Shown here piece by piece: positions 1-34,420 of a DNA stretch of 34,828 nucleotides. The DNA is taken from IMG/VR virus record IMGVR_UViG_3300034815_000019, positions 1 through 34,828 of that record; one strand, 5' to 3'. Numbering within the stretch: position 1 is the first letter of the stretch; each line of letters opens with the position of its first letter. Origin of the DNA: a virus. Taxonomy: Duplodnaviria > Caudoviricetes. The translations under genes and the position numbers were made by a program. Below the pieces are notes generated by a model, which did no database searches, was not told the DNA's origin, and worked only from the letters and a program-made list of their open reading frames with translations.

Positions 1-171
1 GTGTTCGGGGCGCTTTGTCATGTCGCGGTAAAGCGCCATCTGTCCGTTCGCAAAGCGCAGGCATTCGCTTGGGTTCGCGCTTTCCCTGCCGTGCAGTCGC
101 CACCATTTTGCTATCCATCGGTAGCAGTCTGGTTTTGGTGCATGCGCAGCCATGTCGGCCACGTAAATCAT
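1..171 (-). CDS. Hypothetical phage protein, partial (runs off the left end; MIYVADMAAHAPKPDCYRW...)
   Basis: My translation: open from ATG 171 to the window edge, with GAGG just upstream. Confidence 0.45.
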   Translation of the reverse strand, partial: MIYVADMAAHAPKPDCYRWIAKWWRLHGRESANPSECLRFANGQMALYRDMTKRPEH

Positions 172-185
172 GGCCTCACGTGTCG

Positions 186-377
186 TCAATTTTCGTTTAT
201 CGTGTGGCATAACCCGGCACTCACATCCTTTACCACCACGCTCAGGTGGTAAAGGAACATCACGCCACCTTCTGGGTTTGGTATGTCCATCGCCCGAATT
301 TCCCTCTTTATCGCCGTCGCCAGATCGCCAACATCCATCTCGCCCAATTCGATCACTACCTCAAGTTTTACCTTCAC
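186..377 (-). CDS. Hypothetical phage protein
   Basis: 63-aa ORF with AGGAG upstream, co-oriented with neighbours. Confidence 0.6.
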   Translation of the reverse strand: MKVKLEVVIELGEMDVGDLATAIKREIRAMDIPNPEGGVMFLYHLSVVVKDVSAGLCHTINEN

Positions 378-395
378 TTCGTTCTCCTGTTCGCG

Positions 396-635
396 TCAAT
401 TCAATATCTTTTCCTCGCCGCACAACAATTTCCGCAGGTGGTCCTGCGCTCTGTCTGCCTCCTCTTGGCTGGCAAGTCCGTAAACCATCACCTCAACCCC
501 GTACTGATAAGAGTCTTCGTCCAAAAAAGTGCGCATGCTAATGGTCATTTCGTCGGTTGCTTTCATTGGTCGCGCCTCCACGCATAACACGTCGGTCGAG
601 CCGAGGGCTGCGAGCGTCTTTGGTCTAATGTTCAT
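396..635 (-). CDS. Hypothetical protein; first ATG lies in the loop of attC 582-667 (a later Met is possible)
   Basis: 79-aa ORF whose N-terminus is encoded by the loop/L''/R'' of the attC. Confidence 0.6.
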   Translation of the reverse strand: MNIRPKTLAALGSTDVLCVEARPMKATDEMTISMRTFLDEDSYQYGVEVMVYGLASQEEADRAQDHLRKLLCGEEKILN

Positions 636-667
636 TCCGTAAGCCCCGGCTCACCTAAGCGTTAGGC
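582..667 (+). repeat. attC site 1 (86 bp)
   Basis: GCATAAC-acgtc-ggtcgagccg...cggctcacc-taagc-GTTAGGC. Confidence 0.85.
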
Positions 668-846
668 AACATCGCCCGGTCTACCGCAGCATCGAACGCA
701 TCCTGCGGAATCGGCCATGTGCGTCGCCTCTGCACCAGTCCGAGCATTTCTCCGGCCATCTTGTCGTCTTGCCGCGCCGGTTGCCCGGCCCGCATCCATG
801 CCGAGAGTGCGCGGTATCTCGCTGCGTCTTGTGCGTTGTTGTCCAT
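655..846 (-). CDS. Cassette ORF: small phage protein with DAARYR...DAAVDRAM motif
   Basis: Motif typical of phage early-region accessory proteins; GGAG RBS; ends PNA* inside attC 1. Confidence 0.75.
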   Translation of the reverse strand: MDNNAQDAARYRALSAWMRAGQPARQDDKMAGEMLGLVQRRRTWPIPQDAFDAAVDRAMLPNA

Positions 847-868
847 ACGCCCGTCTCCGTAAAAAGTT

Positions 869-931
869 GCCTAACCCGGCGCTCAAGCGGGACCGTCCGC
901 AAGCGGCCGGCCCCTTAGCTCTGCGTTAGGC
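869..931 (+). repeat. attC site 2 (63 bp)
   Basis: GCCTAAC-ccggc-gctCaag...cttagc-tctgc-GTTAGGC; extra C in L''. Confidence 0.93.
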
Positions 932-932
932 G

Positions 933-1106
933 TCAAACCCATATCCCGCTACCTGATCTGCGCAGCGTGATTCTTGGAAGCCACCGTTTGATTGATACAG
1001 CCAGTTTGTGCGAGTATATTTTTGTCTCCCACATGATGCGAAAGAAACGAAATTGCCTTTCTTCCGGCGACCACCTACCAACCCATTTGAATCTTAAATT
1101 TTTCAT
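933..1106 (-). CDS. Cassette ORF: small basic, Trp-rich hypothetical protein (alternative start 1118)
   Basis: Fills cassette 926-1193; GGAG precedes ATG 1106. Confidence 0.6.
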   Translation of the reverse strand: MKNLRFKWVGRWSPEERQFRFFRIMWETKIYSHKLAVSIKRWLPRITLRRSGSGIWV

Positions 1107-1126
1107 TTTGTTCTCCATAAAACCCC

Positions 1127-1199
1127 GCCTAACCCGGCGGTCAAGTTCGCCCTTCGGGCTGGGACGGGCTATCGCCCGCCCCTTACCTTTGCGTTGGGC
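1127..1199 (+). repeat. attC site 3 (73 bp)
   Basis: GCCTAAC-ccggc-ggtCaag...cttacc-tttgc-GTTGGGC. Confidence 0.92.
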
Positions 1200-1528
1200 G
1201 TCAAAAAACTAGCTTCGCTTTGTTCCAACGCATATTGCAATTGTGCGTTGTATTGGCGCAGTTTTCTGTTCTCTTCGTGTAGTTCTGCGATCACCGCGGC
1301 CTTGTCGGCGAGTTGTTTCTGGCTTACTCTGAGATTGTTTCCTGCTTCTTGTAGTAATCCAAAGTTGTAGTCGAAAGCAAAATTTGTTTGTCTAACTAGC
1401 TCTTCCTGCGAATTTATACCTGCCTTTTCTGCATCATTCCAAAGATAGCGGCAGGCAGAGCGGTTAATCATGTCACTGGATGACAAATCATTTTCAGTCC
1501 ACCAGTCGTCAAATTTATCAATTTCCAT
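1169..1528 (-). CDS. Cassette ORF: coiled-coil hypothetical phage protein
   Basis: 119 aa; GGAG RBS; C-terminus PNAKVRGGR* read through attC 3. Confidence 0.75.
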   Translation of the reverse strand: MEIDKFDDWWTENDLSSSDMINRSACRYLWNDAEKAGINSQEELVRQTNFAFDYNFGLLQEAGNNLRVSQKQLADKAAVIAELHEENRKLRQYNAQLQYALEQSEASFLTPNAKVRGGR

Positions 1529-1551
1529 TTCTTTCTCCGTGGTTAAAATAC

Positions 1552-1610
1552 GCCCAACCCGGCGTTCAACGCGGAGCCGCTAAAGCGGCCCGGTTAACTC
1601 TACGTTGGGC
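1552..1610 (+). repeat. attC site 4 (59 bp)
   Basis: GCCCAAC-ccggc-gttCaac...gttaac-tctac-GTTGGGC. Confidence 0.93.
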
Positions 1611-1924
1611 GTCTTGGGCTTCGCCATCTCCGCAGCAGCTCGCACGATGGCGCGCCGAACCGATACACAAGGATCGTCGCCGAGTGGTTCCGTCCATGAC
1701 CAAACTTGACCGTTGTCCCAGCCTGGGCGCGGAGCCTCGAACCACACCACGACCGTTTCGCCTTCGTATTCGTGGTCAATCCGCAGTTTCACCGCCAGAC
1801 GCAATGCGTCGCCGTCGTCTTCGAGCGGGTTCCACCCCGCGCCGTCGTCCCATGATTCGGCCGGCACGAAGTTGGTTCCAATCGCATTCGCCGCCAGTTC
1901 AAGCAGCTCGCTGTCTGTCATCAC
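1580..1924 (-). CDS. Cassette ORF: phage protein with WNPLEDDGDALRLAVKL and RRAIVRAAAE motifs (NinX/DUF2591-like)
   Basis: Motifs recognised as a common phage nin-region family; ends PNVELTGPL* in attC 4; family name is tentative. Confidence 0.7.
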   Translation of the reverse strand: MMTDSELLELAANAIGTNFVPAESWDDGAGWNPLEDDGDALRLAVKLRIDHEYEGETVVVWFEAPRPGWDNGQVWSWTEPLGDDPCVSVRRAIVRAAAEMAKPKTPNVELTGPL

Positions 1925-1951
1925 AGTATCCTTTCGTTGTAGTTACAATCC

Positions 1952-2015
1952 GCCCAACCCATCGGTCGAGCGCGACGGGCGAAAAGCCGCCCGCGCCTCA
2001 CCTCAAGCGTTAGGT
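1952..2015 (+). repeat. attC site 5 (64 bp)
   Basis: GCCCAAC-ccatc-ggtCgag...ctcacc-tcaagc-GTTAGGT. Confidence 0.92.
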
Positions 2016-2623
2016 GCCTTTGGGTATGGCTCGGGCCGATAGCGCAAACTTGCGAAAATATCGGCCCTGCGCCGCCCCTTAGCGTTGATAAAAACATACC
2101 TGTGCTTCCGTGGCCTGTCCTGCAAACTGAACCTGTCGCCAAACTCTGCGCGTATTTCTGCCGCCGTGTATTTGTCGGCGAGCGTCTGGCAGTGCTTGCT
2201 CATTCCGTCAATCGTCCAGTTCGTGCGCTTCGCGGAAAGCCCTGTATAAATCCAGTTGGTCGCCTGATACACAATCCCGACATGCCCTTGCTGAATCTCG
2301 GCGAAAGAAACAACAATCTCTTTTCCGGCCTTACCAACGGTGCGCCCTATCAGGTAGCTTTCCCCGTTGCGCGGCACGCTGTCGCAAACCCATAGCCGCG
2401 TCAGCTCTGCCACGTTGCAGGCGTTCTCTGGCCCCGCAATGCCGCTGCGTAGTGGTGCGCTGCTCGGCGTCCCGTAGCAAACCACGCCTTTCAACTGGTC
2501 GCCGAGAAACAAACCAAACGCCACGCTGCAAGGTGCTTTCCGGTGCAGGTAGTGCTCTCGCACAATTACCGCCATCGCTGTTGCGTAGTCAATCTGTTGT
2601 ATCCGGTAATTCTCAAGCGCCAT
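2003..2623 (-). CDS. Cassette ORF: Mom-family (GNAT-fold) DNA adenine modification protein
   Basis: Motifs EHYLH, ELTRLW, PRNGES, VVSFAE, GHVGIVYQATNWIYTG match the Mu Mom-like pattern. Confidence 0.82.
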   Translation of the reverse strand: MALENYRIQQIDYATAMAVIVREHYLHRKAPCSVAFGLFLGDQLKGVVCYGTPSSAPLRSGIAGPENACNVAELTRLWVCDSVPRNGESYLIGRTVGKAGKEIVVSFAEIQQGHVGIVYQATNWIYTGLSAKRTNWTIDGMSKHCQTLADKYTAAEIRAEFGDRFSLQDRPRKHRYVFINAKGRRRADIFASLRYRPEPYPKAPNA

Positions 2624-2658
2624 CGTTTTTCCTTAAAAGTCGGCTCTGGCAACACGGC

Positions 2659-2725
2659 ACCTAACACGTCGCTCAACTCGGACTGGCGCAAAATGCCGCG
2701 CCAGCCGGTTAGCTAGGCGTTGGGC
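2659..2725 (+). repeat. attC site 6 (67 bp)
   Basis: ACCTAAC-acgtc-gctCaac...gttagc-taggc-GTTGGGC. Confidence 0.92.
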
Positions 2726-2729
2726 GTCG

Positions 2730-3026
2730 TCATTTGTCGCCACGCTTTACATGCACCCACTTTTTCGGCTCACCGTCTTTGTGAATCACAGGAGGCTCCA
2801 GCACCATGCCGGGTGGGATGATGCCGCCCGTTTCTGGCAGCGGCAGCAGGCCGGCTTGTGTCATTTCGTCCGCGATCTTTTCGAAGTAGAGCGTGCAGCT
2901 CTGGCCGTAGTCTTCGACTGGTTTGCCGTCCGCGTCGAGAATGTCGCTGAACTCGCCAGGGTTTGCCGCATAGCGCCGCGCCCACTCGTTGAAAATTGCC
3001 GTCATCCGCTGCTGTGTTGTGTTCAT
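2730..3026 (-). CDS. Cassette ORF: hypothetical protein
   Basis: 98 aa; AAGGA RBS; fills cassette 2720-3131. Confidence 0.75.
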   Translation of the reverse strand: MNTTQQRMTAIFNEWARRYAANPGEFSDILDADGKPVEDYGQSCTLYFEKIADEMTQAGLLPLPETGGIIPPGMVLEPPVIHKDGEPKKWVHVKRGDK

Positions 3027-3067
3027 TTTTTTCCTTTCGTTTCACAAGTCGGCTGTGGCGGTACGCC

Positions 3068-3137
3068 GCCCAACCCTGCATTGGAGATGGACCGTCCGCA
3101 TAAAGCCGCGGCCGGCCCCTCAATTTGAACGTTAGAA
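3068..3137 (+). repeat. attC site 7 (70 bp)
   Basis: GCCCAAC-cctgc-attggag...ctcaat-ttgaac-GTTAGAA; core similar to site 2. Confidence 0.88.
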
Positions 3138-3335
3138 CTCCAGAACATAAAATGAATGAATCCAATCTTCAAATTTCGCTTTGCTGGTTTCCATTCCTTC
3201 GCCGGATGAATGCCCAATCCAATAGCCACAGTTGGATGTGCGAGTAATGGTGTACTCTCCAACACACAGGCGTTCTAACCCGGCGTTCGAGCGGGAGCGC
3301 GCAAAAGCGTCTTTCGTTTCTTGTTCGTCGTTCAT
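3132..3335 (-). CDS. Cassette ORF: hypothetical protein starting inside the attC 8 loop
   Basis: 67 aa; ATG 3335 in the loop; TAA stop lies in the R' box of attC 7. Confidence 0.65.
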   Translation of the reverse strand: MNDEQETKDAFARSRSNAGLERLCVGEYTITRTSNCGYWIGHSSGEGMETSKAKFEDWIHSFYVLEF

Positions 3336-3365
3336 AGTGCGCGCCCCCTCAACTTCGCGTTATGC
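3273..3365 (+). repeat. attC site 8 (93 bp)
   Basis: TTCTAAC-ccggc-gttCgag...ctcaac-ttcgc-GTTATGC. Confidence 0.9.
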
Positions 3366-3527
3366 CCCTAGTCCGTCTGCCAGCTTTTCTAGGGCTTCTT
3401 CCAGCGTTTGGATTCGTGTCCACATCGCGCTCTTTGCGTGTTGCGGGATGGCTGGGTCTAGCGTCATACCGCGCAGCATGTTGGCGGTTTCATCAACCAG
3501 CGCGTAAATTTCGTCGTTGCTCATCAT
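3360..3527 (-). CDS. Cassette ORF: small hypothetical protein (MMSNDEIYALVDE...)
   Basis: GGAGAG RBS before ATG 3527/3524; TAA stop lies in the R' box of attC 8. Confidence 0.7.
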   Translation of the reverse strand: MMSNDEIYALVDETANMLRGMTLDPAIPQHAKSAMWTRIQTLEEALEKLADGLGA

Positions 3528-3550
3528 TCTCTCCAAGTAGTTGCACCGTG

Positions 3551-3614
3551 GCATAACACGTCATTCCACCGGACGGGCGATAAAGCCGCCCGCCTGTGAA
3601 TTCAAGCGTTGGGC
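3551..3614 (+). repeat. attC site 9 (64 bp)
   Basis: GCATAAC-acgtc-attCcac...gtgaat-tcaagc-GTTGGGC. Confidence 0.92.
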
Positions 3615-3952
3615 GCCCCGTACACCTTGTTGTAGTAGGAGAGAGCACGGATGATCTGCGCAGCGGTGTTGGAGTGGCCGCGCTTTTCGCGCCACCGCGC
3701 CGCCTCAAATTGCCCCTGTTTGAGTCGGTCGTATCCGCACGCGGCACAATTTTTCCAGCGGCTACCGGGTCGGTAGCCGTAACTACGGCTACTTGCCCCG
3801 CAACGCGGGCAACAAGCTGTCTTTTTCGACCCGCCGGATTTGCTTTTGCCAGCAAACGGCAGCCTGCAAATGAGGGTTGCTAGGACGCCCAACCCTACAT
3901 TCGAGCTGGACTGGCCGATAAGTGGCTCCGTTTGCGGTTCAGTGGTGTTCAT
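3602..3952 (-). CDS. Cassette ORF: Zn-ribbon protein (CPRC...CAAC) starting inside the attC 10 loop
   Basis: GGAGGA RBS and ATG in the loop; two CxxC motifs; ends PNA* in attC 9. Confidence 0.7.
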   Translation of the reverse strand: MNTTEPQTEPLIGQSSSNVGLGVLATLICRLPFAGKSKSGGSKKTACCPRCGASSRSYGYRPGSRWKNCAACGYDRLKQGQFEAARWREKRGHSNTAAQIIRALSYYNKVYGAPNA

Positions 3953-4009
3953 GGTGCATTTCCTCCGTTTTGGCTGGTGACGGCCAGCCCCTCAATTTGA
4001 ATGTTAGGC
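3887..4009 (+). repeat. attC site 10 (123 bp, long loop)
   Basis: GCCCAAC-cctac-attCgag..ctggccg-loop-cggccag..ctcaat-ttgaat-GTTAGGC. Confidence 0.88.
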
Positions 4010-4176
4010 ACGGCAAGTCCGGCCAATTTCGCAAAAAAATCCGCAGTCACCTCTGCGTATCTTCCGCCGTGATCGCATTTCACTTTTCCGCACTGCGGGC
4101 ATTTATACAACTCCGCAGAATCTTGTGGTAACGTCACCAGCAAAGACCCGCAGCACTCGCATTCCCAATATCTCAT
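3949..4176 (-). CDS. Cassette ORF: small Zn-finger protein (CECC...CPQC)
   Basis: GGAGGA RBS; Cys clusters; C-terminus read through attC 10. Confidence 0.7.
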   Translation of the reverse strand: MRYWECECCGSLLVTLPQDSAELYKCPQCGKVKCDHGGRYAEVTADFFAKLAGLAVPNIQIEGLAVTSQNGGNAP

Positions 4177-4188
4177 CTAATCCTCCAT

Positions 4189-4257
4189 GCCTAACATTTG
4201 CGTCAACGCGGACGCTCCGCTCCGCTTCGCTACGCGCCGGTTACGCCAGCGTTGGGG
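4189..4257 (+). repeat. attC site 11 (69 bp)
   Basis: GCCTAAC-atttg-cgtCaac...gttacg-ccagc-GTTGGGG. Confidence 0.9.
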
Positions 4258-4264
4258 TGCTCAA

Positions 4265-4453
4265 TGAAGAGGGCTGGTCGCTACTCCAGCACTGATAGCG
4301 GCTTCTCCCGGCCAGTGTCTCACTCACTGCCTGTGCGGTACTGGTTCAGACCTTTGATCTTTGGCGTCATCAATCCAGTATTTGCAGCGTTTCCCGCCTG
4401 TTGGCGCTGCTCCGATCATTTAGCCCGGCGTCTTGCTTCCCGCCTGCCTCTTC
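4265..4453 (-). ncRNA. Candidate tRNA-like structured RNA filling an ORF-less cassette
   Basis: 7-bp terminal stem GAAGAGG/CCTCTTC, D-arm-like GGCG/CGCC, T-arm-like GCTGG-8nt-CCAGC, and three further internal hairpins. Confidence 0.55.
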
Positions 4454-4461
4454 GTTCAACA

Positions 4462-4529
4462 CCCTAACCATACAATCAACCTGACCGTACGGATAAAGCC
4501 CCGCCCGTCAGGTTACTTCCACGTTACTC
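4462..4529 (+). repeat. attC site 12, terminal (68 bp; R' = GTTACTC, non-consensus after GTT)
   Basis: CCCTAAC-catac-aatCaacctgac...gtcaggttact-tccac-GTT. Confidence 0.85.
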
Positions 4530-4757
4530 AAACCTCAACCCGCTGCACATAAACCCGGCATCATCCCCGATGTTTTCATCCGTCATCACCCGCTCCATCC
4601 GCTCCCGGTGATGGCGGATCATCTGGCCGAAGCTGCGATTGCTGGATTCAATGGCTTCCTTGCAGGTCTTGCGAATGTCCATCTTGGCGGATTCGGTGAA
4701 AAGTTCGATTGCGAAGTGACGATCGATCCTGGTGTGGTCTGGTAGTGGGGTGATCAT
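4524..4757 (-). CDS. Hypothetical phage protein; its TAA stop overlaps the terminal R' crossover
   Basis: 77 aa; AGGAG RBS. Confidence 0.65.
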   Translation of the reverse strand: MITPLPDHTRIDRHFAIELFTESAKMDIRKTCKEAIESSNRSFGQMIRHHRERMERVMTDENIGDDAGFMCSGLRFE

Positions 4758-4820
4758 GCTGCGTAACTCCTTGCAATCATCAACAGTAAGTCTCTAAATT
4801 CTGGCGGGTTACTTTTGCGA

Positions 4821-4973
4821 TCATTTCATCCTCAAAAGATGCGCTGCAACAGCCCTGCGGATAATCTCAGCAACCGGCGCTCCAGTCTTTTCTGATAGTT
4901 CGCGCAACTTTGCATCCATGTTTTTAGGCATGAATAGGTTAACTCTAGTCATTGGTTTGTTTTGTGTAGTCAT
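4821..4973 (-). CDS. Ribbon-helix-helix (CopG/Arc-like) regulator, 50 aa (not in ORF track)
   Basis: MTTQNKPMTRVNLFMPKNMDAKLRELSEKTGAPVAEIIRRAVAAHLLRMK: beta strand, helix, G-x-x-x-x-E-I-I-R-x-A helix. Confidence 0.85.
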   Translation of the reverse strand: MTTQNKPMTRVNLFMPKNMDAKLRELSEKTGAPVAEIIRRAVAAHLLRMK

Positions 4974-4978
4974 GTGTA

Positions 4979-5008
4979 ATTATATGTATAAGTTACCAGG
5001 AATGTCAA
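4979..5008 (-). promoter_or_regulatory. Consensus sigma70 promoter pointing into the RHH gene and cassette array
   Basis: TTGACA (5008-5003), 18 bp, TATAAT (4984-4979); ATG follows 5 nt after the -10. Confidence 0.8.
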
Positions 5009-5048
5009 GTATTTTATACGCCTGCCCCTGAGCTGAAAATAATAATTT

Positions 5049-5570
5049 TTATATCAGAAAACCCCTATGCTGCATAAAATCTACTGGATGTTTTACGCTC
5101 TTCTGCATATTGCAGACTGACCTCAATAATTGCATATTGCTGTCCACGTTCTGATCTCCAAGAGCAAAACCACAACAAATACATTTACCACGTTGCAATT
5201 TAAACAATTTTTCTGCCAATCCTTTTGACAAAGTTCCTCCATTGTTGAGCTTGCGTGCTCTCCTATTTTGCCTATGAATTCTTCTTGCATCTGGGTTATT
5301 TTTTGACCATGAATTTGTTTGTTCTTTTTGTTTTTCTGTCCGTGTATTTTTAGATCGCCACATTGCGTTAGCTTTCTTCTTTTTTTCTGGATTTAATTTT
5401 GCCCACTCCAATGATTTTACTTTTACTTTTTCTGGATTTAATTTTGCCCAAGATGCTGATTTTTCACTACAGCATTTTTTACAATGTGATTTTAAATATG
5501 GTTTCCCGCGTTCTTTTACGGAAAACGCTTCGAGCGATTTTGTTTCGCCACATCTAGTGCATGATTTCAT
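5049..5570 (-). CDS. HNH homing-endonuclease-like protein with the DH catalytic segment deleted (alternative GTG start 5585)
   Basis: N-terminal CxxC...CxxC; C-terminus paralogous to 33580-34335 but lacks YHMDHIVPLSLGG. Confidence 0.8.
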   Translation of the reverse strand: MKSCTRCGETKSLEAFSVKERGKPYLKSHCKKCCSEKSASWAKLNPEKVKVKSLEWAKLNPEKKKKANAMWRSKNTRTEKQKEQTNSWSKNNPDARRIHRQNRRARKLNNGGTLSKGLAEKLFKLQRGKCICCGFALGDQNVDSNMQLLRSVCNMQKSVKHPVDFMQHRGFLI

Positions 5571-5601
5571 TTTGATGCCCTTCACGGCAAGTTGAATTAT
5601 T

Positions 5602-5653
5602 GCCAGTAATCCGATTGTGAAGAATCGGAAAGGATTGCAATCCCTGTCCTAGC
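5602..5653 (-). ncRNA. C4-antisense-like structured leader upstream of HNH copy 1
   Basis: TATAAT at 5665-5660; closing stem with two hairpins; loop CTTCAC complementary to GTGAAG (5585-5580) at the translation start region. Confidence 0.5.
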
Positions 5654-6132
5654 TTTTTAATTATACTATTAACATTAGAAAGATAACATCAGGATGTTTG
5701 AGCAAGCCAAGCCCATCCTAGAGAAAGGCCTCGCTTACAATATGCGTCAGTCTGTCGTCGCGTATCGCCATTTCAGCCTTTTCGCGTCAGGGTGCTAAAA
5801 TACGCCCGCCCAGTTGAGTGTTTCAACGCTATCCCACAGTTCTCAAATCTTCCTTGACCGCTGCTGTTACCCGACCAGTCAAGTGCTCAGAACCTTTACG
5901 CAACCAGCTCAGGGTCTGCCCCCTCGCATCAGTTTCGATACGTCAGCCTTACGGGCAACCGTGCGAACTTCGACGCGGTGCGTGTTGTTTCAGCCCTTAT
6001 CCCCCCGGTACACAAATCCCCCATAACCGCCGGTCTTTATCCTCCCCGGCTATGGCGTTTTACCTGGCTGCCTTCTGAGTGGCACTTTATATCCAGCTAA
6101 CTTCGGTCTGGATTCCATTTGCTACAGGCAAT

Positions 6133-33579: not shown

Positions 33580-34335
33580 TTACAATAGAAATCCGCTTTT
33601 CCTCATAAAATCTATTGGATGGTCGGTATGTTTTCTCATATTACATACCGCTCTTAGTAGCTGAATATTATCATCGGTATTTGACCCGCCAAGTGATAGC
33701 GGCACGATATGATCCATATGGTAATCAGATCCAAGTGCGTGTAGGCAACACGGACATTTACCTTTTTGAAGCTTAAAAAGCTTTTCTGCTAGTCCGTGAG
33801 AAAGAATGCCGTTGCTTTCTTTTTTCCTGGCCCTTCTGTTTTGATTATTTATTATCACTCGATCAGGATTATTTTCCCTCCATCTATTTGTTCTTTTTAT
33901 GGCCGACTCTGGATTTTTACGCCGCCACTCCGTCTTAGTAGCCCTGCGCTTATCTGGGTTTTCTTTGGCCCACTTTGAGGATCGATCTTTAAACTTTTGT
34001 GGGTTCTTTAAATACCTTATGGCAACCGCATCCCTTATCTTTTCCTTGTTTTCAACGTAACGTTTTGCCGCAGATATTCGCACCTTTTCTTTATTTTCTT
34101 TTACATATTTTGCGCTATATATTTTCGAGCACTCTGGACAATTTATTTTACTAAACTCCGCCCCACATTTAATGCATGTTTTTGTTTCTGCACAATCTTT
34201 TATCAACAAATAACGCTTCGCGTCTCTTTGCTTGGTGCATACCTTACAGGCGCTATTCAAACCGTCTGCTGATAATGCTCGTTTATTAAATTCGTGGATT
34301 GGCTTGCTGATCTTGCAATTAGAGCAAGTTTTCAT
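33580..34335 (-). CDS. HNH homing endonuclease
   Basis: MKTCSNC start; CPCC...HMDHIVPLSLGGSNTDDNIQLL...CNMRK; AT-rich. Confidence 0.9.
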   Translation of the reverse strand: MKTCSNCKISKPIHEFNKRALSADGLNSACKVCTKQRDAKRYLLIKDCAETKTCIKCGAEFSKINCPECSKIYSAKYVKENKEKVRISAAKRYVENKEKIRDAVAIRYLKNPQKFKDRSSKWAKENPDKRRATKTEWRRKNPESAIKRTNRWRENNPDRVIINNQNRRARKKESNGILSHGLAEKLFKLQKGKCPCCLHALGSDYHMDHIVPLSLGGSNTDDNIQLLRAVCNMRKHTDHPIDFMRKSGFLL

Positions 34336-34364
34336 GATGTGTCCTAACCGACATTGAGTGAGTG

Positions 34365-34420
34365 TGTCGGCTATCTGGTGAGTTAGCACCTTCAACTTGC
34401 GCGCTCTCCAGCGACCGACA
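34365..34420 (-). ncRNA. C4-antisense-like structured leader upstream of HNH copy 2
   Basis: TGTCGG/CCGACA closing stem, two hairpins, loop CTAAC complementary to GTTAG (34348-34344) at the RBS; TAAAAT upstream. Confidence 0.5.

Follow-up and report, generated by a model that had tools for sequence, protein, structure and literature searches.

The viral contig IMGVR_UViG_3300034815_000019 (34,828 bp, linear, estimated to be 92% complete and without an end repeat), the whole of which is here called the window, is that of a P22-like podophage, and in its early region, between positions 582 and 4529, it carries an array of 12 attC sites, the recombination sites of integron cassettes. All genes of the array lie on the minus strand, antisense to the top strand of the sites, which is the plus strand, and the ORFs of the window that were scanned against families are those of the minus strand. 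This reversed polarity, which was not stated in the original prediction of an integron-type array at this locus, is the defining feature of the array.

The 12 predicted palindromes are all present at their expected starts, and each shows the proposed anatomy, with an R'' box ending in AAC, a 5-nt spacer, an L'' box with one unpaired base, a variable loop, an L' box and an R' box beginning with GTT. Their lengths (59-123 bp) fall within the 57-141 bp range of attC sites. With the plus strand as top in every case, these are attC 1 (582-667, crossover G661|TT), whose loop contains the start of gene 396-635; attC 2 (869-931), attC 3 (1127-1199), attC 4 (1552-1610), attC 5 (1952-2015), attC 6 (2659-2725) and attC 7 (3068-3137), with crossovers at 925, 1193, 1604, 2009, 2719 and 3131, which close the cassettes 662-925, 926-1193, 1194-1604, 1605-2009, 2010-2719 (the Mom cassette) and 2720-3131 (412 bp), respectively; attC 8 (3273-3365, crossover 3359), with the start of gene 3132-3335 in its loop; attC 9 (3551-3614, crossover 3608); attC 10 (3887-4009, 123 bp, crossover 4003), whose loop holds a ribosome-binding site and the ATGA (3949-3952) in which the stop of one cassette gene overlaps the start of the next; attC 11 (4189-4257, crossover 4251); and attC 12 (4462-4529, crossover 4523), whose degenerate R' overlaps the TAA stop of the backbone gene 4524-4757. 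The eighth site is 89% identical to one in a viral locus that bears an integron integrase (IntI), L243, where it likewise precedes a homologous gene.

The AAC of R'' and the GTT of R' are invariant in the 12 sites, and the outer bases vary, as expected after shuffling. The L'' box has 8 nt and in every site pairs best with L' (6-7 of 7) when its fourth base is omitted, with omission of the fifth base giving a tie in two sites; the middle of the site spans 20-83 nt and the spacer from L' to R' 5-6 nt. On the bottom (minus) strand an extrahelical G16 is present in 11 sites (attC 7 has C at this position) and a second extrahelical T at 23/24 also in 11 (it is lacking in attC 3). The bottom strand folds more stably than the top strand in 11 of 12, and the minimum-energy fold differs from the canonical hairpin at several sites. 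G16, T23/24 and the GTT/AAC boxes are described in the available text of PMC5027507 as the IntI-contact features that mark the recombinogenic bottom strand. A rule that uses no sequence family gave, over positions 1-4600, 12 starts with the plus strand as top (10 of the 12 sites and two others) and none with the minus strand as top, while 200 dinucleotide shuffles gave a mean of 0.6 starts and a maximum of 3. Polarity was scored with a matrix of 28 bacterial sites, used in place of the attC models of IntegronFinder and HattCI; to avoid circularity these sites were oriented by the strand of the upstream gene only, and 27 of the 28 have C16. All window sites score from +7.9 to +19.7 with the plus strand as top, and from -0.2 to -15.0 with the minus strand as top. 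By anatomy and polarity, the 12 sites are attC sites. Their arms are on average 65% identical, and the longest exact run common to any two of them has 15 nt. A half site at 207-255, overlapped by the end of gene 186-377, has an R'', a spacer, an L''-like box and an internal hairpin; considered as a thirteenth attC, it had no matching right arm by eye and was not counted, and it is possibly a decayed one.

A chimeric join near 4524-4760 had been named as a possible source of error. Single contigs from two runs of different studies, X1 (4224-5922) and X2 (4327-4958), bridge this region, and therefore the array is not chimeric there; X1 may be the source sample.

The only promoter match to the full sigma-70 consensus (12/12) lies at 4979-5008, at the array's far end and on the minus strand; none was seen in the position of the integron cassette promoter Pc, upstream of attI and driving the top strand. 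This predicted 'reverse Pc' faces the array and reads into it through an Arc-like repressor gene (4821-4973), the first gene after it, and the orphan backbone gene 4524-4757 (77 aa). Further along the minus strand follow a cargo without an open reading frame (ORF), predicted to be a structured RNA (4252-4468); a zinc-ribbon-like gene with weak matches only (3949-4176, 75 aa), which stops inside the attC 10 loop; a Cys-rich gene (3602-3952, 116 aa), which starts in attC 10 and stops in attC 9; a phrog_13384 gene (3360-3527, E 5e-11), whose stop is the TAA in the R' box of attC 8; a gene of 67 aa (3132-3335), which starts in attC 8 and ends with the TAA in the R' box of attC 7; an orphan gene of 98 aa (2730-3026); a gene for a Mom-family DNA-modification protein (2003-2623, PF25680 E 1e-40, phrog_1384), predicted to be anti-restriction, with its stop inside attC 5; a phrog_5086 gene (1580-1924, E 7e-22) stopping inside attC 4; a gene of 119 aa with a weak phrog_5915 match (1169-1528) stopping inside attC 3; and orphan genes of 61 aa (933-1118), 63 aa (655-846, stop inside attC 1) and, in the leftmost cassette, 79 aa (396-635). 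The family match is clear for three array genes, namely Mom, phrog_5086 and phrog_13384.

Genes and sites are interlocked. Six genes run through the crossover and stop inside the neighbouring attC, the TAA inside R' is the stop of two cassette genes and of the backbone gene 4524-4757, three genes begin inside the loop of their own attC, and the AAC frame reaches a stop in or just beyond all 12 sites. Most array genes are preceded by a ribosome-binding site. The predicted spacing of one gene between successive sites holds for 10 of the 11 intervals, the interval 4252-4523 having none. For the left crossover of the leftmost cassette the best candidate is G365, which does not rise above background, and a scan for terminators remained at chance level (8 vs 9.2). 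Because the array would be transcribed from a promoter opposite to the attC top strand, each attC appears to travel at the 5' end of its gene; the classical gene cassette, with the gene on the top strand and attC at its 3' side, is not the layout of the window.

The same polarity prevails in other viral cassettes. In a set of 80 viral loci fetched with their flanks by the attC motif, 48 have at least 2 sites and 22 have none. Among 234 distinct viral cassettes, 89 have ORFs on the antisense strand only and 12 on the sense strand only (83 on both, 50 on neither), whereas the same scan of 112 distinct bacterial cassettes gave 74 sense-only and 4 antisense-only (13 both, 21 neither). For viral cassettes with ORFs on both strands (70 of 141 examined), matches to the PHROGs database fall on the antisense strand in 19 of 70 and on the sense strand in 0 of 70. 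As a control, the integron of Shewanella phage M16-3 gave 8 sense, 0 antisense and 2 unclear cassettes, and the array of phage TJE1 is also sense. The antisense excess and the antisense-only PHROGs matches bear out the earlier suggestion of a phage-specific cassette pool.

Cassettes common to unrelated phages have their borders at G|TT. The Mom cassette is similar to L020 over 2009-2721 and to L019 over 2006-2714, with 87% identity and unrelated DNA beyond, and the similarity of the ORF-less cassette to MW202573 begins at 4250. Of the left borders in 109 pairs of viral cassettes, which are not independent of one another, 47 are no more than 10 nt from G|TT. The IntI-bearing phages L245 and L252 share, at 99.8% identity, a 1045-bp cassette bordered by G|TT, which points to a very recent exchange. 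In addition, an X1 contig joins 2717 to 3130, omitting the 412 bp between 2719 and 3131 with the 98-aa orphan gene, and only CGTT (~4 bases) is shared at the joint; contig depth is 5.2 at the skipping joint, as against 7.6 in the intact form and 12.2 in the left flank. The joint is no more than suggestive of a cassette-precise loss of 2720-3131. At the left end of the array the main X1 contig diverges from the window left of 652, from which the population seems to be variable there; X1 contig depth over 1-651 is low (~2-3 vs 12).

No integrase had been seen near the array, and indeed the contig has no match to PF00589 at E<=1. With 12 clustered attC sites and no intI nearby, the array is an attC cluster that lacks an integron integrase (CALIN), as far as the contig goes, ~8% of the genome being absent from it. 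Related cassettes do occur beside an integrase. In L020 the Mom cassette is the first at an attI site located 63 nt from intI, and the IntIs of L020, L132 and L160 pass the TIGR02249 cut-off of 265 with 450-479 bits. A scan with the L020 IntI retrieved 53 viral loci, of which 49 were examined after four with a partial IntI were dropped. The attC sites are upstream of intI in 30 of these, 111 of 113 sites point away from intI, and the cassette genes mostly run towards it (43 antisense, 11 sense, 25 unclear). The viral loci share an attI ending in GAATTTAAG|TT; in 20 of 28 loci this motif is 61-63 nt away from the start of intI. The attI matrix was built on 27 hand-picked loci. The same attI is followed by different first cassettes in L247/L248, L249/L250 and L252/L255, which implies recent insertion. 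In a FastTree phylogeny of 120 distinct IntI sequences of at least 270 aa, 40 of them viral, 33 of the 40 fall into a single clade (support 0.94), which is nested among proteobacterial IntIs. The viral IntI in L264:5062-8951 is not part of this main clade and groups with Gallionella- and Thiobacillus-type IntIs, and its cassettes are mostly antisense as well; this locus is a possible second origin of the reversed layout. In L020:1906-4254 and L160:4569-6778, a separate phage-type integrase gene comes after intI (in L020 a small excisionase-like gene lies between them), which suggests that both phages are temperate and that intI is the last gene of their early operon. A LexA-like box was present in the region upstream of intI in 2 of 27 loci of the viral clade and in 10 of 63 bacterial ones, and is uninformative.

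An IntI above the cut-off is encoded in 2 of 38 array-bearing records, in 0 of the 8 with a completeness of 90% or more, and not in circular MW202573. Since most arrays have no IntI, supply in trans is favoured: the enzyme most likely comes from a host chromosomal IntI or a co-infecting IntI phage, and with much lower probability from an intI in the missing ~3 kb. The host IntI acting in trans that was originally proposed is possible, although a phage-encoded IntI clade with its own attI uses the same cassettes, and the ~8% of the genome that is absent lies on the intI side.

With a probability of about 0.8, we interpret the locus as a reversed-polarity, integrase-less cassette array in a P22-like early region, the cassettes of which are likely moved at G|TT by an outside IntI. 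The array would be transcribed as one operon from the predicted promoter (5008-4979), each gene receiving its stop from the TAA in R' or from the adjoining attC or attI. IntI would fold the bottom strand, which is here the coding strand, and excise or insert cassettes; these would leave by attC x attC recombination and, in the IntI-bearing phages, enter at a promoter-distal attI. New cassettes would arrive at the end farthest from the promoter, which is opposite to the classical arrangement. Two reasons for the reversal are likely. It would silence host cassettes, which are often anti-phage, in the phage, and phage cassettes in the host; and, if replication forks follow transcription, it would place the recombinogenic strand on the lagging-strand template, a position that raises excision according to the accessible text of PMC5371416.

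Several observations weigh against this interpretation. The best phage-type attI in the window scores 6.8, against at least 19.9 for the training set, and the best host-type candidate, G365, scores 12.1, below a background site at 13.4. The left ends of 62 of the 109 cassette pairs are not within 10 nt of G|TT, many being at the L' box or across the whole neighbouring attC. The short side of the X1 joint has 26 nt, the joint was placed at 88% likeness, the stretch between is marked as not known, and depth is no copy number; the available part of PMC5371416 also reports integrase-independent loss of cassettes of 60 and +400 bp, ascribed to slippage. No array was found in backbone relatives, at 0 of 18 helicase loci (44-64% identity) and 0 of 80 terL loci, many of which have short flanks, and therefore order changes at this exact locus were not seen; the terL loci also yielded neither attI nor IntI. 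Of the gain, loss and reordering of genes by attC recombination that had been proposed, precise sharing and a probable precise loss are supported. Finally, the exclusivity of the viral IntI clade is biased, because the query is a member of it and the bacterial scan covered 4 of the 64 parts of the collection.

The absence of an integrase could also mean that the array belongs to a complete phage integron, with attI and intI in the ~3 kb that the contig lacks beyond position 1. The contig is incomplete and linear, a gene is truncated at position 1, X1 departs from the window close to this end, and the attI and intI of the IntI phages are on exactly that side of their arrays. Nevertheless, the ~580 bp to the left of the first attC have no phage-type attI, and the near-complete records and circular MW202573 have arrays and no IntI, so we regard this as unlikely. 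The sites could alternatively be relics, captured once, with the variation produced by ERF/RecA-type recombination or replication slippage and not by IntI. Homologous exchange between repeats has an analogue in the boundary sequences of lambdoid phages, and this phage encodes an ERF-like annealing protein and a Gam-like protein; the 65% arm identity, the shared blocks that end at L' or cover a whole attC, and the recorded slippage of small cassettes (PMC5371416, in part) are compatible with it. However, the sites share exact runs of 15 nt at most and the X1 joint only ~4-5 nt, the extrahelical bases and the bottom-strand stability are kept in 11 of 12 sites despite the divergence of primary sequence, and the same cassette is found at an attI, which makes such relics quite improbable.

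Capture of a bacterial CALIN en bloc, with an incidental orientation, is largely refuted. The sites and the chromosomal attC of Proteobacteria are indeed of one sequence family, and a scanner trained on the window finds arrays in 35 of 80 bacterial IntI loci; but bacterial cassettes are sense (74 vs 4), no cargo protein of the window matches any of those 80 loci, and the cargo has ordinary phage homologues, phrog_5086 being without attC in 11 of 12 loci and Mom without an array in 76 of 80. As to whether the hairpins act mainly on the mRNA, in processing, stability or translational coupling, with DNA recombination being secondary, the transcript carries the more stable bottom-strand fold, and starts, stops and one stop/start overlap lie within the sites. 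Against this, G16, T23/24 and the GTT/AAC boxes are what IntI contacts (PMC5027507, as far as available) and exchange occurs at G|TT. We consider a mainly RNA-level function very improbable, though an RNA role may well coexist with recombination.

The cargo had been described as phage genes rather than typical integron cargo, and this agrees with the phrog_5086, Mom and phrog_13384 families and with the lack of any match between the cargo proteins of the window and the 80 bacterial integron loci. Among 80 Mom relatives, an array surrounds only the 4 closest (85-96% identity), and these array-borne Mom genes carry three different attC types. One attC that precedes Mom, antisense to the gene, at L022:7899-7958, is by eye nearly the class 1 aadA7 site of Table S3 of Qi et al. 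(PMC9892861, seen in part). Several of the phrog_5086 homologues without a nearby attC are in terL or helicase relatives of the phage. Other viral cassettes match families that include DNA methyltransferases, Lar-like proteins, an exonuclease and an RNA ligase. Because the cargo has free phage homologues and none in bacterial integron loci, the cassettes look as if they were made from phage genes.

The ORF-less cargo (4252-4468) is ~85% identical to stretches of MW202573 and L168 and has no match to an Rfam family. An alignment of nine sequences (window 4252-4468, L099:3187-3404, L168:7703-7919, L149:1665-1836, L001, L460, L462, L463 and L465) gave a model with a long closing stem, a short 5' stem, a conserved 3' hairpin and a variable middle, in which 21 of 55 pairs change on both sides (0 of 500 shuffles), the alignment having been fitted to the model. 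A second member is another ORF-less cassette, between two attC sites in L149. The window cassette alone folds no better than shuffles (z -1.32), and of 24 loci retrieved by a 17-mer search the model matched only L473, on the same contig as L168. From this modelling the cargo looks like an undescribed structured RNA.

In the rest of the genome, the minus strand between the primase and HNH genes carries two tandem Betaproteobacteria-1 RNA motifs (RF02932, 5768-5885 and 5938-6056), scoring 64.7 and 48.4 bits, one above and one just below the gathering score of 49.4; these matches suggest a betaproteobacterial host. ERF, Gam, repressor, ParB-like protein, helicase and primase genes lie at 6-12.6 kb, and those for terminase, portal, scaffold, capsid and ejection proteins at 14-29 kb. 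With the replication genes upstream of the array, the original prediction was fair in calling its position 'nin-like'. Two HNH/endonuclease VII-like genes (5049-5585 and 33580-34395) would flank the array region on both sides if the genome is circular. GC skew, considered for placing the origin, is negative over 1-10 kb but confounded by the coding strand, and was rejected. Relatives of gene 4524-4757 were sought in viral contigs and those of gene 396-635 in metagenome contigs, without any being found; a search with the primase gave distant short contigs only and did not recover the missing end. Two runs contain at least half of the array's words, both of them sediment metagenomes, and no RNA run is listed as containing them. 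As the closest backbone relatives have no array, it was probably acquired in a narrow lineage, and it may have been founded at the GTT within the stop codon of gene 4524-4757, an attG-like landing site; the GTT of attC 12 fits the GWT secondary-site consensus given in the accessible text of 10.1101/2022.09.11.507474.

Related phages have the same cassettes beside their own integrase, and therefore phages likely run a separate, mirror-image pool. In its widest form, to which we would give somewhat less than even odds, this means that phages of Proteobacteria run a mirror-image integron system, with their own IntI clade and attI, cassettes of early genes and RNAs, and a pool rich in counter-defence functions (Mom, methyltransferases, Lar-like) that is tapped in trans, the reversal serving as a firewall and cassette genesis being ongoing. 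That genesis is in progress is proposed because cassette and non-cassette versions of a gene coexist and Mom occurs with three attC types; the origin of cassettes becomes a testable question, as cassette-borne phage genes and their free counterparts are open to comparison. A large reversed pool with its own integrase clade would be the same chemistry wired to a phage operon, would supply the mosaic early regions of phages with a site-specific mechanism, and may be the counterpart of chromosomal integrons in their role of anti-phage banks (10.1101/2024.07.02.601686, seen in part).

Phage CALINs are already known, from Qi et al. 2023 (TJE1, PH101, P12002L and MW202573; PMC9892861), and the earlier statement that integrons are normally chromosomal or on plasmids and transposons overlooks them. 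According to the available text of that paper, 5 of 6 tested phage attC sites recombined with IntI1. The window resembles these CALINs in having attC clusters without intI and DNA-modification cargo, and MW202573 shares a cassette with it; it differs in having 12 sites, versus 2-4 in the entries of Table S1, and antisense genes. While TJE1 is sense, the four sites of MW202573 are antisense to its annotated genes. The accessible text of PMC9892861 makes no mention of antisense cargo or a phage-specific IntI/attI clade, that of PMC13676570 reports no CALINs, and in the literature searched, which left subscription journals mostly outside, we found no report of reversed phage arrays or a phage IntI clade. 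What appears to be new here is the reversed polarity and the phage IntI/attI platform.

With the classical integrons (class 1 and the sedentary chromosomal integrons of Proteobacteria) the array shares the attC family, its anatomy and the G|TT crossover, and the IntIs of its relatives pass TIGR02249 and point away from the attC top strand. In these integrons the cassette genes point away from attI and intI, but here they point towards them; the promoter is located at the opposite end of the array, attC is at the 5' end of the gene, and the window has neither intI nor a clear attI. The distance from attI to intI is only ~60 nt in most of the viral clade, so that Pc would have little room. The asymmetry of attC is said to serve insertion in the sense direction behind Pc (PMC5027507, in part). 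Insertion at attG, giving single attC sites lacking an integron integrase (SALINs), resembles the last R' of the window, with its degenerate GTT within a backbone stop codon; it is described, in the available text of 10.1101/2022.09.11.507474, for bacterial chromosomes and single cassettes, and the likeness is one of sequence only. Complete integrons, with intI, attI and array in the phage genome, are present in the temperate phages Shewanella M16-3 and Vibrio Va_90-11-286_p16 (PMC9892861, as far as available). M16-3 has the canonical polarity and looks host-derived, whereas the viral clade is reversed and carries phage genes.

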